Assembly: GCA_964016885.1 (NCBI GenBank)
Contig: OZ024745.1
Location: 81,344,001-81,408,000, forward strand
Source of the DNA: Eledone cirrhosa
Lineage: Eukaryota
Length of the DNA stretch: 64,000 nucleotides
Direction: 5' to 3'
This document shows, piece after piece, positions 752-10,741 of this stretch (the first letter of the stretch is position 1; each line of letters starts with the position of its first letter). The position numbers were made by a program, and so were the translations under genes. The notes beneath the pieces were generated by a model. It was not told where the DNA came from. It ran no database searches and worked only from the letters and a program-made list of their open reading frames with translations.

Positions 752-796
<45 letters not shown>

Positions 797-800
<4 letters not shown>

Positions 801-1718
801 TAAATATACACGGGTGTGTATGATTGTGTATAGAAGATTATATTAATAAGAGGAATTCCAACTTTGTCTGATTTACTCGTTTTATTTACAATCCTTTAAA
901 ATTTATAATGGTATTATAATGAAATAGTATGATAGAATATTAAATTCTAAGTGTTAATTGAACAAGTACTTTCATGCTTTCGCAATCTTCAGATTCATAA
1001 TATGTGGTGACAGTCAAGTTTGCAATTTTCAACTGTAATAAGATGGGTAAATTTCCTACCTTTTATACATTTTATACAGGGAAAAGTGACTCCAGAATGC
1101 TAAGCCCTGCAAACTGTATTTCGGCCAATCAGTGTGTAGTTTCACTGAATTACTAAAGCTGATTGGTTTAAGCGTCACGGCTGGTTGAGCATGTCTAACG
1201 ACCAATAATTAATCATATCCAAAGCATCAATTGTTTTGCTATTTTTAGAAATGATGAAAATAGCATTTTCTATTAATCATCACCATCAACATCACTTTTA
1301 TTATTGTTATTATTATTATTATTATTATTGTTGTTGTTGTTGTTGTTGTTGTTAGTGGTCGTAGCCATGGTGGTAGAAGTAATACCCCTAAGCGTTATTA
1401 TTGTTCATTTAGCTTGGGTTTGAATTTATCAATAAAATTATTTTCTTTGATTTTTCTCTTGATTTCACTTGGGCTGTGTAATTTGTAGAATGGGAATATT
1501 ATAAATATTCCCTGACCACATGTTGCTAGATGGTTACTTAGGGGTATCTGACGGACACTTGGGTTTCTGATTTGTTGACGGTGTACCCGTGCACGTTCCG
1601 ATAGTGCATTTCCAGTTTAACCGACATATAGTTCTTCACAATTCGGGCATTTAATGCAATAAATTAGATTTCTGCTTTTGCAGTTCATATTTGCATTTGG
1701 GAATATTTTTCCAGTTTT
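797..1718 (-). repeat. Inverted copy of the 3' end and pLTR of PLE-1
   Basis: Reverse complement of about 5354-6267 plus a roughly 40-nt extension that also occurs at 2035-2073. Confidence 0.95.
959..997 (-). ncRNA. Minimal type I hammerhead ribozyme in the inverted PLE-1 pLTR
   Basis: Minus strand reads tgaat-CTGAAGA-ttgcgaaagcat-GAAA-gtac-TT-gttca. Confidence 0.75.
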
Positions 1719-1873
1719 TAATTCAGTGAAACTACACACTGATCGGTCGAAATACAGTTTGCAGGGCTTAGCATTCTGGAGCCACTTTTCCCTGTATAAA
1801 ATGTATAAAAGGTGGGAAATTTACCCATCTTATTACAGTTGAAAATTGCAAACTTATCTGTCACCACATATTA

Positions 1874-1912
1874 TGAACCTGAAGATTGCGAAAGCATGAA
1901 AGTACTTGTTCA
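1874..1912 (+). ncRNA. Minimal type I hammerhead ribozyme in the PLE-1 5' pLTR
   Basis: tgaac-CTGAAGA-t(tgc gaaa gca)t-GAAA-gtac-TT-gttca, with palindromic stem III AAGTACTT. Confidence 0.8.
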
Positions 1913-2114
1913 ATTAACACTTAGAAATTAATATTCTATCATACTATTTCATTATAATACCATTATAAATTTTAAAGGATTGTAAATAAAACGAGTAAAT
2001 CAGACAAAGTTGGAATTCCTCTTATTAATATAATCTTCTATACACAATCATACACACCCGTGTATATTTACCTATCTATATATATATATATATTCCTATT
2101 GTGTATATGCCAAC

Positions 2115-3448
2115 ATGTCTGGAAAGCAACAAATGAAATCAACAGAATCAGAAAGAATTCTAAAGGAGATATCATCGAAATTATCAACACTTATCACGAT
2201 GATGGACACACAATCCTCTATTTTAAAGGAAATAGAAAAACAATCTACAGACGGAAAACTTATAACTGAACATATAAACTCTGAAATTAAGAATTTCGCT
2301 GAAATTATACCAACAGTTATCAAAGATACAAGAGAAAGCGTACCACAGCCCCCTTGGATGTCAGAAATAAACGAAAGAAATTTGGAAAACAAAACACATC
2401 GAATAAGAAAAGAAATGTGGAAGACATGGAAAAAATTCCTTAACATAAGAAAACAAAATTTCTCGAAAGCATACAAATGCGAAAAAGATGTCGAAACACA
2501 TTCGAAATGGCTCTCTCTAACGGCGCCCATGCTCCCTCGTAAATACCTAATTACAGAAATTGCAGGAGAACCAGAAGAAGAAACAAAACTCCGATGGGAA
2601 CTTACATTGACAAAATTCAGGACCGACATCTCCATTTCTGAATGTAAACAATCCCGCTACAAAGCCAAATATGAAGCTATTGATGACCAAATTGAAGTTG
2701 AAATTTCAAAGCTAACGACTGGTATTATAGCTGAAAAACTACGAGAACTATGGATCAGAGATATCTCAAAAGAAGAAAACAAATCAAGAAAGGTATGGCA
2801 GCAGAAACAATTATTTCTCGACACTGTAAAGACTCTGGAACCCTGAGAAAAAGCATTAAAAGTGGACAATCTCATCAACACAACATACGCCAGAACACGT
2901 GCCAACACAAACACTCACCTTACCTTGAATCAAAAAAGAACTACGGTAATAACTCTTCGCTTTTTCTACAAAAACACCCTATCGCACACAACATGAACAA
3001 AAAGCACAAACACGATAGATATTCCTTTGACCAGACAATGAGAAGTAGTAAAACCAGGATATCATTCTCAAGATCTCAACAGAGACTACCAACAAGGAAT
3101 GTGGAAACAAAACGTAGAATAACCAGATCACTCTCAAGATCTCAACAGAGATTGCCCACAAGAAACTGGACGAAAAAACGATCTAAACCTGAAAGCAAAC
3201 CTAGGTCATTTCCCCAGATTGTTAAAAATAATTCTAACAGGAAGAAAAATAATATACAGAATACCAAAAATAGGACAAAATACATAACGAAACCAAATAT
3301 AATATCACGACCAAAAGTTCATCAAGCGAACACCAACAGGAATATAAATCCTGAACAGAGAAAAATCCATTTTTTAACGTCAGGACAACAAAAACCGGAA
3401 AAAGAAAAACTCCAGGAGGAAACATACCCGAAACAGCTGTACACGTAG
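2115..3448 (+). pseudogene. PLE-1 upstream ORF1 (helical N-terminus, basic C-terminus), split into 2115-2846 and 2750-3448
   Basis: Two overlapping ORFs between the pLTR and RT. Kozak-like gccaacATG. Repeated SRSQQRLPTRN motif. Confidence 0.6.
3370..3376 (+). other. Candidate -1 ribosomal frameshift heptamer T TTT TTA
   Basis: In phase with ORF1 codons cat|ttt|tta. The -1 frame is open from here into RT and is closed by TGA at 3352-3354. Confidence 0.65.
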
Positions 3449-5674
3449 ATCCTAAAATAATTAATTTATCTAAAAGAGATCTTGACAATGATGAAATGCA
3501 AATTCTGTCAAAAGGACTGAAATTCACACCGACTCCAACAGTCAACCACCAAGAACTGAAGGAGGATACCCAAGAATTCTGTCGAAAATTACGTCTTGTA
3601 GAATTCTTCGCTGATAAAAATAATGAGAGTGATGAATCACTAGTAAAGAATAAATCAAATTTCACTCCGCCAAAAGGAAGAAATATCTATCTCGACCAAT
3701 ACATTGACATCCTGTCTAAATTTCCTCTTAGACATAATACTAATGTTAGGCCAAACATTAACAAATCAGAAATGTCTGCACTTAAACGTATACAAAATGA
3801 TAAAACAATAATAATTAAACAAGCAGATAAAGGGAGTGCAGTTGTTATAATGGATACTGAATACTACAAGGATTTGGTTGAGGAACAACTGAAAGACACA
3901 ACATTCTATCATGAAATACCGTCAAATATAGACCACAACATCATGAAGAAGATCAACAACTTGGCTTCAAAATACCACAACTCACTTACTAATAAGGAAA
4001 GAGACTACATCACCAATTTTGAGCCGAAACCCAGCAACCTGTATGGCCTACCTAAAGTCAAAAGAAATACTACTGGCAGTAAGAGAACAAAACAGTGAGT
4101 ACATTAAATTATTACACCCAAAAGACTTAAAACTTAGACCTATTATAGCTGGTCCAACATGCCCCACCCACCGTCTTAGCAATTTTGTTGACATTATTTT
4201 GAAACCACTATGTATTCATATACCCAGTTTCATCCGGGATGATATCGACTTCCTGTCCCATCTTCCCAAAACCACGGAAACGAATTCACTTCTACTCAGT
4301 TTTGATGTGGTAAGCCTTTACACCAACATTACACATGATTTAGGAATAAAGGCGGTTAAATACTGGGTGGGAAAACATAGAGAAGTGATTGCCATCAGAT
4401 TCACAGCGCCATTTATATTAGACGCAGTTAAACTTATTCTGGAAAACAACACTTTCTTCTTCAATGGAAAGAATTACATCCAAATTAGAGGCACAGCGAT
4501 GTAAACGAAGTTTGCTCCCGTTTACGCGAACTCTGTAATGGGATACTTAGAACAACAACTCTACCAAGAAATAGAGGAAAAATATAGTACTGACTTTAGT
4601 AAGTACATTGAAAAATCTTGGAAGAGATACCGTGACTACTGTTTCATCATCTGGACAGAATCTCTAGATACTCTGGATGAGTTCAATATCCTCCTGAATA
4701 ACCTACACCCATCACTCCAATTCACAAAAGAGATGAGTAGGTCCAAATTACCATTCCTAGATATAATGATAATCAAAAACGACACCACCATTACCACGGA
4801 TATATATTATAAACACACAGACACCCATCAATATCTGAATTTTAAGTCGTGCCATCCACCTCATACAAAACGCAACATCCCATACTGCCTAGCCAGAAGA
4901 ATTTGTACCATTGTAGAAGATACGAATACCAGGTACAAACGCCTAACAGAACTAAGAGAATTTTTGCTCAAACAAAAATACCCATCTCTACTTATAGAAA
5001 ATGGCATACAGCGGGCTATAAAAATACCTATACAACAACTTAGGACAACCCAAGGAAGAAGAAACCAAGAACTGGTCATACCATTTATAATGACACACAA
5101 CCCATGTCACCAGAATATCTTCAACACTGCCAAAGCAAACCTACCGATCATTGCTCAAAGTAATGAATTAAAAGGCTTAATCACAGATCGATCTTTGACT
5201 CTTAGTAAAAGACAGCCAAAAGATTTGAAGCAATTACTAACAAAAGCAAAGTTTGATCTTAACAACGAAGACCAATCATTCACTGTATCTAAATGCAATG
5301 ATAGTCGATGCGGCACATGTCAATCCATACACGCCGGTCAATATATGAAAACAAAAACTGGAAAAATATTCCTAAATGCAAATATGAACTGCAAAAGCAG
5401 AAATCTAATTTACTGCATTAAATGCCCGAATTGTGAAGAACTATATGTCGGTCAAACTGGAAATGCACTATCGGAACGTGCACGGGTACACCGTCAACAA
5501 ATCAGAAACCCAAATGTCCGTCAGATACCCCTAAGTAACCATCTAGCAACATGTGGTCAGGGAATATTTATAATATTCCCATTCTACAAATTACACAGCC
5601 CAAGTGAAATCAAGAGAAAAATCAAAGAAAAGAATTTTATTGATAAATTCAAACCCAAGCTAAATGAACAATAA
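3370..5674 (+). pseudogene. PLE-1 RT plus GIY-YIG polyprotein, disrupted
   Basis: Motifs IINLS..ILSKGLKFTP, ADKG, LRPII, SFDVVSLYTNI and GTAM*. Frameshift near 4060, stop at 4502-4504, and catalytic YxDD altered to YRDY. Confidence 0.92.
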
Positions 5675-5736
5675 TAACGCTTAGGGGTATTACTTCTACC
5701 ACCATGGCTACGACCACTAACAACAACAACAACAAC

Positions 5737-5812
<76 letters not shown>

Positions 5813-6110
5813 GTGATGTTGATGCTGATGATTAATAGAAAATGCTATTTTCATCATTTCTAAAAATAGCAAAACGATTGATGCTTTGGATATGATTAAT
5901 TATTGGTCGTTAGAGATGCTCAACCAGCCGTGACGCTTAAACCAATCAGCTTTAGTAATTCAGTGAAACTACACACTGATTGGTCGAAATACAGTTTACA
6001 GGGCTTCGCATTCTGGAGCCACTTTTCCCTGTATAAAATGTATAAAAGGTAGGAAATTTACCCATCTTATTACAGTTGAAAATTGCAAACTTGACTGTCA
6101 CCACATATTA

Positions 6111-6149
6111 TGAACCTGAAGATTGCGAAAGCATGAAAGTACTTGTTCA
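6111..6149 (+). ncRNA. Minimal type I hammerhead ribozyme in the PLE-1 3' pLTR
   Basis: Identical to 1874-1912. Confidence 0.8.
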
Positions 6150-6274
6150 ATTAACACTTAGAATTTAATATTCTATCATACTATTCATTATAATACCATT
6201 ATAAATTTTAAAGGATTGTAAATAAAACGAGTAAATCAGACAAAGTTGGAATTCCTCTTATTAATATATATATA

Positions 6275-6366: not shown

Positions 6367-8495
6367 CTCTTTTACTCTTTTACCTGTTTCAGCCATCCGG
6401 CTGAGGCCATGCTGGGGCACCGCCCTTGTAGCTACACATTTTATCTCCAACCTGTATAGGTTGGCCACTGGTGTAAGAGGGAGTTTGTTGCTGCTGCCCT
6501 TGGGTTTCCCTCGTGTCTTGCTGTGGGCTCATCCGGGATCCTGGATAACAAGGTGTCGAGATGTTTCTTGAAGACATCCACCTCCAGGTCATGCAAATCT
6601 CTAAGATCCCTCGGCAGCCTGTTGAAGAGTTGAGGGCCCTTGAATCCCAGGCTATTGCAATACCTGCTCCTTATTCTAGATGTGGAAGACGGGACCTTTT
6701 GCACCACACAGTGACGTCCTGTTCGACGGTTGGTCCAGCTCCCAATGCCAAATTTGGTGCTAGTCCCTCCAGGATTTTCCACATGTAGATCACTGCGTAT
6801 CTTTTCCGTCTTCGCTCCAAAGAGTAGAGGTTCAGTTCCTTTAGCTTGTCTCCCTCATCTTGGCAATCGTCTTGGTGTAGCTTCGCTGGATTGCCTCAAG
6901 CTCCGTGGTTAGTTTGATACTATGGGGTGACCACAACTGGGAGCAGTAATCCAGGCGGCTTAGGACAAATGTCCTACATAGTGTCAACATGGTGTCTCGA
7001 TCACTTGTCCGGAAAGTCCTCAAGATCCAGCCAGCGAGTCGTCTGCACATTGTCGCCACTTTCAAGATGTGTGAAGAAAAAGATGCATCATCGCTCATGT
7101 CTATGCCCAGGTCTCGTATCGATTTTGACACGGGGATATCCGTCCTTCCTGGTCCTGTGTAGTTGTGTTCCACTACATTTGTGTTTGCAGGTTTGTTTGG
7201 AGGTTTGTATTGTAGGGCTTGGAATTTGCCAGCATTAAATTCCATGTTGTTTTCTTCCGCCCTTTTGTATATGGCATCCAGATCCTGCTGTAAAAGGGCA
7301 GCGTCAGCCGGGTTTTTGATTGCCTGTGCTACCTTAGTGTCATCAGCATAGCTAGTGAGGGATGTTGTTGTATATACTATAGAGGGCATGTCTGAGAGAG
7401 CCACCAAAAACAGTAGTGGTCCCAGGACTGTCCCCTGGGGCACCCCACTTGCTATTGGTGTTTCCTTTGAGAGGGCCCCATTTGCTGCGACTACCTGGCT
7501 TCTGTCCCTTAGGAAGCCATGCAGCCACTCACCTACTTTTCCAGTTATGCCGAGTCCGTGTAGTTTGTGACATATCATTCCGTGGTCGACCTTGTCAAAG
7601 GCCTTCGTAAAGTCAAGATATATCACGTCCACATGTGAGCTGTCTAGTAGTTGTCTCAGTACCCAGTCGTAGTGACGTAGTAGCTGTGTAAGGTAGTTTC
7701 TTCCTGGGCGGAAGCCATGTTGCGTGCTAGTCAGGCGGTCATTTTCCTCGAGGAAAGTGATCAGTTTCTTTCTGACGACTCGCTCCATGACCTTACTGAT
7801 ATGCGACGTCAGGGAGACTGGCCTATAGTTTTTGGCCTCCGCTCTGCTACCTCCTTTGTGGATAGGGCATATTGTGCCTTCTTTCAGCACCCTGGGTAGT
7901 ACACCGCTAGCCAAGGAGCTTCTGAAGAGCATCTTCAGTGGAGTTGCTAAGGCCCGCTTACATATTTTTAAGAGAACTGCTAGGAATCCATCAGGTCCAG
8001 CAGCCGCGTCTGTTCTAATTTCATCAATGGCGTACACCACATCCTCCTCCGTCATGTCTGTGTTTGATGGTTGCCATTTCTTCATGTAGTGTTGTGGCAT
8101 CAACGAACTCCTCTGGCTTCGTTATTTGCATGTGCCTCAGTGGACATGTGAACACACTTTTGTACTGTTCGTTCAGTATTTCTCATATCTCTTGGGGTTT
8201 TTCGGTTAATGAACCGTCCGTATGGAAGAGTGGCCCAATCTTGCAGTGTACTGAGGCAGTTTCTTTTTCAAATTTAAAGAAGGCCTTAGGGTTTTTTTTA
8301 ATGTTTTCTGTGGCCCTGTTCTCTTTCTCATGGGAAAGCTTGAGTGCAATCTTGGTGCCAAGTAATGCACATTTCAAATAGGATTCCTTCTTGTTTTTGT
8401 TTTGTTGACTATTCAACTGGTTTGAGAGTTTAGTTCTACGTCTCATAAGGATTTTCCTATCTCTGGGAATAAGATTTTTGTGTCTGTTTGCCTCT
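6367..8495 (-). mobile_element. CR1-group LINE, 5'-truncated with frameshifted RT
   Basis: ORF 6841-8103 has NYRPVSLT, YLDFTKAFDKV, GVPQGTVLGP and YADD. C-terminal piece [17 protein letters not shown]. Tandem AGAGTAAA tail. Confidence 0.93.
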
Positions 8496-10741
8496 AAATC
8501 TAATAAAAATTATGAGAAGCTATCAGAATAAAAACAAATCTAATAAAAACAAATCTAATAAAAATGAAAAAATTAAAAAATTAAAAAAAATAAAAAAATT
8601 AAAAAATTAAGAAATTAAAAAATTAAAAAATTAAAAAATTAAAAAATTAAAAAATTAAAAAATTAAAAAATTAAAAAATTAAAAAATAAAAAAATAAAAA
8701 AATAAAAAAATAAAAAATAAAAAATAAAATATATCAATATAATTTAAAAAACAAGGATTCTACAGTTATCAAAATATTTAAAAAGTTTAAAAATAAAATT
8801 TTTTTTTAAAATCTTAAAAAAATTTAAAAAAATTTTAAAAAATGTTAAAAATAAAAGAAAAAAATTTTAAGAACTCTTAAAATATTATAGAATATTTTAA
8901 GCTAAAATAATATGTTTAGTATAGAAATTTATCTTACGTATATTATTCAAGATATTGAAAGGATAAACTTTTCTAGAATAGTTTATTATATTTATAATTA
9001 TATTTATGAAGAAAATTTATACTTGGGTACTTAACCAAAGAAAATGAAAAAGGTGAAGGAATCTAATGATTTATCGACAGGTTACATATATTAACTAAAT
9101 TACTTAATTAATTAAACTACATTTTAAATTTATATTTATATTTAAACGTTGAGTTCGATCTATGTCTGCAGCAACTGAATAAATTATTCCTTAAATTAAG
9201 GGAATTTTTGGTCTTTAATATAAAATATATTTCCTCTATACAAAGGTCACAATTTTCTGAAGAGGAATTAAAAGGAGTAGCTTTTGAAATAATATTCCAA
9301 ATCAGCGAATATTGAACATTATCTCGTTTTAGGTCCCATAATAGTCTAGATAGCGAAGTTGAAGATTTTTTGTTTGGATCTGTAAAAGAATTTTTATGAT
9401 TATTGAAGCGGGATTTAAATTCTGTAGAGGTTGAACCGACATAGTTAAATGAATTTAAATTAGTTTTAACATTACAATTATAAACTACATTTTTAGCTAA
9501 GCAGTTGTTATTTAACGGACAGTTGGATTTATTTCTACAGTTACAGTTATTCGATTGAATATTGCTTGGGTTATTATTGGTATTTTGGTTAGGTTTTAAA
9601 TTTCTATTATTAATTCTATTAATATTTTGCGCTAAATTTTTGGTGGAAGAGTAGATTAATTTTATAGTATGTCTATTAAAAATTGAGTAATATTTATGTG
9701 TTCTGGGGAATCGTTTGTCAAGAGCTTTAAAGAATAGTTTAGCAATAGGGGTTTTAATATTTAGTGAGAAAGGGGGAGCGAACCATAATATATTCCTAGT
9801 TCTATTTCTTTTTCGGCTTTCGGAGTTATAGTAATATTTTCTATTATGGTTGTTGAAATTGTTACCATAATTAAATTTGTTATTATTTTGGTATATATAT
9901 ATTATGTATATATATTGTATATATATATTATGTGCGGGAGTAGATATAATGTGTATTTTCTGAGTGAGTGTGTATATATATATATTTATGTACCTTTGCG
10001 TATGTGTATGTAATATGCGATAGATAATCTCTCTAGCAATATATATATTTTATAATGTTTAAATTCCAATTTTTTTTTTTAATATATTGATCTCAATTTT
10101 AAACTAAATATCTAATCATAATTAAACAATGTGTAATTTCTCATATTATATATCTATATTCCATTCATGAATATTAATATTTCTAATTTTATTTATGCTT
10201 TTCATCCCAATTGTTAACTCAACTTAATATGACATAACTTAAGGTTTTCGTTCTCTCCCCCCTCTCTCTATCTCTATATATCTCTCTCTGGATTTTTTCT
10301 CTGTCTGATGGTTTGATATCTCCCCGTTATTTTTCCTCTGTTCTCTTTTCTTTTTGCTTTCTTCTTTTTCTTTATCTATCTCTCCCTTTCTTTTCTCCAC
10401 ATTTCTCTCTCTCTCTCTCCATCTTTTTACTTACTCTTAACACTATGACTTACTAAAGTAAACAAATCACTATCCTGATGGCCTCCAAAAACAACGGTCA
10501 ATTTTTAAAGGGGTACGTCAATGTCTATTTATAAAACTGTTATATATTGTATTTTGTCTGATGAAGGCATCCCAGAATGTAACTTAGTATCCTTGAAATA
10601 TATATAATGAAATAAATATGGTTTTATAAATATAGTTTCCATTTATTAATATCGTATATCTACTCCAAATATTTGTTGAGTGCTTTATATCAGTTATAAA
10701 AATATTTGCTTGTTGTATCCCAACAATTTAAATAAAACTTT

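Follow-up and report, generated by a model that had tools for sequence, protein, structure and literature searches.

Comparison across copies, families and hosts indicates that the possession of two ORFs, with a -1 slippery site conserved between them, is a real, ancient and widespread feature of endonuclease-bearing Penelope-like elements (EN+ PLEs), the closest transposon relatives of telomerase, which are modelled and annotated as one-ORF elements. Programmed -1 frameshifting in the style of gag-pol is very probably the route by which such elements reach their reverse transcriptase and endonuclease (RT-EN). A first-pass annotation had proposed gag-pol-like expression for one element in the window (the whole 64,000-nucleotide stretch of Eledone cirrhosa DNA under analysis), and conservation of the in-phase site across copies, families and hosts lends that proposal support.

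Architecture and class of the window element

The element spans positions 780-6268 of the window, running from an inverted partial copy through a pseudo-LTR (pLTR) and the coding region to a 3' pseudo-LTR and a (TA)n end, and consists of the following parts.

780..1719, minus strand: inverted partial copy (3' end of the endonuclease, 3' UTR and pLTR), marked by inverted repeats I1-I3 (96-98%) and antisense EN fragments, and adjoining a (TA)n tract
1719..2091, plus strand: 5' pseudo-LTR, in direct repeats D2/D3 with 5956-6268
2115..3448, plus strand: ORF1, with a helical domain over about 11-241 and a basic disordered tail
3355..5674, plus strand: ORF2 in the -1 frame, with N1 (GLKF), DKG, RT, CX4CxxC linker and C-terminal GIY-YIG
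5675..6268, plus strand: 3' UTR and 3' pseudo-LTR, with an (AAT)n tract, ending in (TA)n

It is a broken copy of a young, high-copy PLE of the endonuclease-bearing (Neptune/Nematis) type. The inactivation that the first-pass annotation had recognised consists of frame-shifting deletions near 2822 in ORF1 and near 4053 in ORF2, a stop at 4502-4504 in ORF2, and an altered YxDD catalytic motif. ORF2 retains the N-terminal RT motifs GxKF and DKG (as KGLKFTP and QADKG), a match to RVT_1 of Pfam with an E value of 2.9e-6, just under the curated cut-off, and a GIY-YIG endonuclease, IYCIKCPNCEELYVG, that matches PF01541 above the Pfam cut-off. The segment that links RT to EN, sought as CX2-5CxxC, reads CNDSRCGTC in the window and CNDNRCGTC in a whole copy, L045, and the pseudo-LTRs lie in a tandem/inverted layout at a (TA)n target. 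A GIY-YIG endonuclease together with a CX4CxxC linker are marks of the Neptune/Nematis type in the text of Craig et al. 2021 (PMC8557442). An RT tree drawn quickly from 49 unnamed rows, five broken loci excluded, sets the U6A and U6G elements together on the same side of a branch that has support 99; the assignment to the Neptune/Nematis type is by features. Identity as an Athena/Coprina element lacking the endonuclease is ruled out by the presence of GIY-YIG.

A minimal-hammerhead-like arrangement, CTGAAGA-stem-GAAA-palindrome, was matched by pattern at 1879, 6116 and 992 (minus strand); Rfam matched neither a hammerhead nor a frameshift family. The window also holds a further PLE endonuclease fragment at 9117-10049 (minus strand), with a CxCX5C linker and without CCHH, as the Hydra clade is described in the literature. 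Positions 6370-8500 (minus strand) and 150-430 hold a decayed non-LTR (LINE) RT, whose 3' end flanks the PLE on both sides, each time adjoining a (TA)n tract.

The ORF1-RT junction and its conservation

In the window, the ORF at 2735..3448 ends with ...KIHFLTSGQQKPEKEKLQEETYPKQLYT, and the ORF at 3355..4098, which reads TEKNPFFNVRTTKTGK...DPKIINLSKRDLDNDEMQILSKGLKFTP, overlaps it at a -1 offset. The junction comprises the following elements, all on the plus strand.

3349..3354: TCCTGA, with the TGA (3352-3354) closing the -1 frame; 5' arm of a predicted enclosing helix
3370..3376: slippery heptamer U_UUU_UUA (His-Phe-Leu in ORF1), in X_XXY_YYZ phase
3380..3385: TCAGGA, 3' arm of that predicted helix, with the CAG (3381-3383) of a candidate rival splice acceptor
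3446..3448: ORF1 stop TAG, 25 codons after Phe
3496..3498: first ATG in the RT frame, within the conserved INLS...GLKFTP motif

Re-reading the DNA confirms every position that the first-pass annotation had assigned to the TGA, the TTTTTTA and the ATG. Its reading of the junction also holds, in that the ORF1 and RT frames place the heptamer in X_XXY_YYZ phase, the -1 frame opens after the TGA, and the ATG at 3496, the only one in the RT frame over 3355-3600, lies inside a conserved PLE motif. The chance of an in-phase TTTTTTA in a 94-nt overlap of ORF1-tail composition is 0.0003, and that of any XXXYYYH is 0.24. The heptamer at this single site, taken alone, is thus suggestive, and it is conservation that carries the case for a frameshift.

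Copies of the same family were drawn from the host genome in two ways. A DNA search gave 1578 candidates, of which 40 were scored; all 30 returned loci keep T6-A, with the -1 frame opening 5 codons ahead of the run and ORF1 stopping 25 codons beyond it, in a set biased by its selection for junction similarity. Selection by ORF1 protein gave 50 loci, a few of them repeating copies of the DNA search, with 46 full junctions aligned: 37 keep the offset, and 6 net -1 and 3 net +1 junctions arise from scattered indels in older copies. Both ORFs are whole in 9 of the 20 junction-bearing copies of one fetch, with an ORF1 of 449 aa (460 in one) and an ORF2 of 775 codons. Because family copies are 88-100% identical, they reveal the active layout, not selection on the slippery site. 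The possibility, raised with the original proposal, that the family has one continuous ORF and that an indel in the T run is private to the window copy is rejected, the T6-A and the -1 offset being kept in the copies (30/30 and 37/46 loci). Frames fused by indels occur in 3 of the 46 family-1 copies and in single copies of families 2 and 5 (L096, L284, L278); with indels at differing places, these fused copies look like decay.

Foreign ORF1 queries reached four further families in the host genome (G000), one of which, family 3, rests on a single copy, L099. Among the five families, the first 330 aa of ORF2 are 39-55% identical, with one pair at 80%, and ORF1 is 30-42% identical, with the same close pair at 75%. 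Every one of the five carries [CT]AT TTT TTA in phase and lacks an ATG ahead of the N1 motif.

More distant homologues show the same pattern in protein form. A profile search with ORF1 gave 568 clusters when grouped at 50% identity, with the top 150 listed, and the tail was analysed in 87 homologues of 330-540 aa (clusters under 50% identity), 65 shorter or longer ones being left out. Phe-Leu (FL) occurs within the last 45 aa of 75 of these 87 full-length homologues, taken from the best-listed matches and related to one another, so that counts are not independent events; it is absent from the last 45 aa in the other 12. The next two segments hold FL in 4 and 8 homologues, and shuffling gave a mean of 6.5 and a maximum of 16 in 2000 shuffles. 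The tail is otherwise rich in Arg, Asn and Gln, with no other shared motif. Residues whose codons cannot end in U (K, Q, E, M and W) precede FL in none of the 75, against a background of 21% (p 2e-8). Of the two alternative phases of that DNA almost nothing is seen in the 87, with FF[RS] in 0 and a terminal F without FL in 2. An in-tail x-F-L in which the codon for x ends in U is the pattern predicted by U_UUU_UUA.

Among foreign contigs, 5 of 134 PLE loci (metagenome and MAG) have an ORF1-profile match upstream of the RT, and all five need a -1 shift, have no ATG and carry TTTTTTA (four) or TTTTTTG (one). An ORF1 query of metagenome contigs and an RT query of viral contigs gave no match. The heptamer and its -1 offset, whose conservation in related PLEs the first-pass annotation had named as the point to check, thus recur in five host-genome families, five foreign loci and 75 of 87 ORF1 proteins. 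No fused ORF1-RT protein, expected at about 1,195 aa, is present among 152 ORF1 matches (maximum 706 aa) or among the best 120 of 393 RT matches (maximum 845 aa, in a search that reached 1357). A canonical single-ORF EN+ PLE is ruled out by the two ORFs of whole natural copies and by the lack of a fused homologue among those matches.

In P0064, a predicted protein of Mytilus galloprovincialis, the gene model passes from an ORF1 homologue (...NNHFLGEGQ...) to the N1 motif of the RT and so connects the ORF1 family with a PLE RT in one named molluscan species, although the fusion of the two was probably made by the gene caller. Fifty-nine PLE loci (L191-L249) lie in assemblies labelled bacterial, probably through contamination by host-animal DNA.

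A distant PLE group carries G_GGU_UUU/C, a different canonical heptamer, which keeps the same phase and lies shortly ahead of the ORF1 stop (12 loci, 10 of them from one assembly). The group (L173, L175, L176, L178, L180, L181, L184, L186, L188, L189, L197, L185 and L201, the last with G_GAU_UUU) has a non-homologous ORF1 with a proline/glutamine-rich tail. Its downstream hairpin, GGAC-AG-GC...GC-AG-UCC, shows changes in the arms between families.

Probable frameshifting and rival routes to the reverse transcriptase

Under programmed frameshifting, ribosomes would start at 2115 and most would terminate at the ORF1 stop, making the 449-aa ORF1 protein the majority product, and a minority would slip -1 at U_UUU_UUA, 25 codons before that stop, and then read RT-EN. 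Tandem slippage of tRNA-Phe and tRNA-Leu would yield an ORF1-RT-EN fusion of about 1,195 aa, and, with most ribosomes making ORF1, that protein would outnumber RT as Gag outnumbers Gag-Pol. HIV-1 gag-pol uses the slippery heptamer U_UUU_UUA. The likeness to HIV-1 thus includes the same heptamer (followed mostly by G in the PLE relatives) and the placing of a structural or RNA-binding ORF upstream and RT downstream. Unlike the viral system, the window family belongs to a non-viral element, has no strong stem-loop after the site, and has an ORF1 without Gag homology; because the PLE has no protease, the fusion would stay whole.

If this reading is right, a large invertebrate lineage, represented by the ORF1 clusters above, makes abundant ORF1 and a rare ORF1-RT-EN fusion and has converged on retroviral gag-pol logic with the HIV-1 heptamer. 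The real RT protein would then be about 1,195 aa rather than about 730, which would account for gene callers splitting or mis-splicing EN+ PLE loci. These loci would also offer many natural -1 frameshift cassettes in cellular genomes, some apparently without downstream structure, for the study of slippage stimulation.

Splicing is a serious rival, because TTTTTTAG is also a textbook splice acceptor. The T run would serve as a polypyrimidine tract, mRNA with an upstream exon spliced on would encode RT-EN and unspliced mRNA would encode ORF1, with the acceptor AG after the run being CAG 3381-3383 in the window and TTAG in most relatives. PLEs do contain spliceosomal introns according to the text of PMC8557442, the codon after FL starts with G in 54 of 75 homologues, and in 9 of 9 DNAs the first AG after the run has phase 2 relative to ORF2, a result that is largely by construction. 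The remaining 21 of 75 homologues have no AG directly after the run, and the nine ORF1 DNAs, some of them partial, hold no donor above 4 bits in the required phase 2. An acceptor need not be phase-locked to ORF1, yet FL occurs in 75 homologues and the other phases in 0 and 2, and the distant group keeps a GGG before its U run for which an acceptor has no need. Contigs of uncertain kind from four runs, aligned to the element, showed no joint into 3384 and no indel at the T run, an observation that bears on neither expression nor splicing. Splicing is accordingly judged very improbable.

In an independent start of ORF2, reinitiation or leaky scanning would reach a near-cognate codon or the ATG at 3496, making the heptamer incidental; with the in-phase heptamer of 75 of 87 homologues left unexplained and the Met unconserved, this is very improbable for the window family. 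The ATG at 3496 does have a fair context (GAAATGC) and sits 47 nt past the ORF1 stop, but a start there would delete the PKIINLS motif that most homologues keep. The predicted start of many RT homologues is a Met immediately ahead of N1, and in some families ORF2 may therefore have its own initiation. In five metagenome contigs (L132, L133, L135, L136 and L148) the stop of an upstream ORF of up to 715 codons (L136) overlaps the ORF2 ATG as ATGA, a stop-start arrangement characteristic of termination-reinitiation and a second mode of ORF1-RT coupling, and reinitiation thus seems to exist among PLEs. Frameshifting is therefore not universal, since other PLE loci have an ATG of their own, some with stop-start overlaps.

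Least credible is polymerase stutter, in which RNA polymerase would add one U at the T6 run in a fraction of transcripts. The overlap does contain a homopolymer run, and one extra U would fuse the frames, as has happened in the DNA of L284 and L278; stutter needs no fixed codon phase, no UUA codon and no G_GGU_UUU variant, however, and six Ts are short for Pol II slippage.

With -1 frameshifting as the preferred reading, the stimulator in the window family would be weak or non-canonical, intrinsic U6A slipperiness possibly being aided by refolding of the enclosing helix. The first-pass annotation had seen no strong downstream structure, and folding agrees: the 40-100 nt after the slippery site give a dG of -2 to -6 kcal/mol with a positive z (about +1), and neither a strong stem-loop or pseudoknot 5-9 nt downstream nor a simple H-type pseudoknot was found in the window family, by tools that miss tertiary or protein-aided stimulators. 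Family 5 of the host genome likewise shows no structure downstream (dG 0.0 over 40 nt). Good downstream hairpins are predicted in L117 and L120, and a candidate stimulator hairpin also in the GGGUUU group. The usual start of a stimulator stem is 7-9 nt after the heptamer, and Gly is 6.4-fold enriched at that position (29 of 75 homologues).

In the window family, UCCUGA (3349-3354) is predicted to pair with UCAGGA (3380-3385) around the slippery site (z -2.5), and similar enclosing helices are predicted in L105, L116, L124 and L120. Over 12 loci, two pairs of which are related, own pairs between the 6-32 nt upstream and the 20 nt after the heptamer beat permuted pairs with p 0.00025, in an interval picked after looking; five other intervals show no such upstream-downstream pairing. 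The enclosing helix is too tight to hold a ribosome, and would thus work as a switch or else mask the cryptic acceptor.

A different arrangement appears where the ORF1 stop lies exactly 10 codons after Leu, as it does in 22 of 75 homologues on several branches (P0022, P0049, P0065 and P0068 among them) and also in host-genome family 5 (L262-L268) and L122. Gly at the spacer occurs in 4 of these 22 homologues against 25 of the 53 others (Fisher p 0.02, on rows that are not independent). Ten codons is one ribosome length, and our guess is that a terminating ribosome might act as a roadblock 10 codons ahead, an arrangement inapplicable to the window family with its 25 codons. More broadly, and doubtfully, hundreds of EN+ PLE families may make up a two-gene lineage that has escaped recognition, in which ORF1 belongs to a new helical family and -1 frameshifting is stimulated without a classical pseudoknot, either by a refolding enclosing helix, as in the window family, or by collision with a terminating ribosome 10 codons ahead, as in the 22 of 75.

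Described PLEs and the ORF1 protein

An ORF1 separated by a frameshift with a pseudoknot is a feature of the endonuclease-less Athena/Terminon PLEs. The window element differs from that type in having an endonuclease, inserting in (TA)n inside chromosomes and having no predicted pseudoknot. The legend of Fig. 1 in PMC8557442 mentions, with the clade unnamed, that a frameshift with a pseudoknot can set ORF1 apart, and this mark may already cover Neptune; in the elements it describes, a coiled-coil-like ORF1 likewise lies upstream of a PLE RT, and a frameshift joins the two. As the first-pass annotation had stated, EN+ PLEs are usually described as single-ORF, in the texts of PMC8557442, PMC4209133 and PMC6515669. 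The single ORF given for Neptune/Nematis PLEs in the text of PMC8557442 contrasts with the separate 449-aa ORF1 found here, in -1 overlap with the RT ORF. PMC12602865 describes a fish Neptune whose two ORFs do not overlap, in text that leaves frameshifting unmentioned. No description of a frameshift in an EN+ PLE was found in the portions of the literature searched, including the relevant text of PMC3846280, PMC5408684, PMC6431247, PMC13159263 and PMC5718144, or in one supplementary file set of PMC8557442; one may nevertheless already be in print.

By its pattern of substitution, ORF1 is a real protein under purifying selection: between families 2 and 3, dN/dS is 0.21 for the first 250 codons of ORF1 and 0.18 for ORF2, as against 0.70 for the ORF1 tail. 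AlphaFold2 (89 sequences) predicts six helices over 11-241, with pLDDT above 90 for about 81-240, and a basic, disordered tail. Pfam gave no ORF1 family above cut-off, comparison with the Atlas gave only matches under 0.9, and structural comparison of the ORF1 model yielded nothing beyond generic helical bundles (best match Z 9.1, rmsd 6.4), which neither name nor exclude a fold. The model, together with an analogy to LINE ORF1 proteins, suggests that ORF1 probably binds and coats RNA and oligomerises. The term 'Gag-like' fits the expression of ORF1 only; the protein itself is predicted to consist of bundled helices and a disordered, basic tail. Within that tail, at 3048-3179 of the window, lies a 66-nt tandem duplication (73% alike), by which SRSQQRLPTRN is encoded twice.
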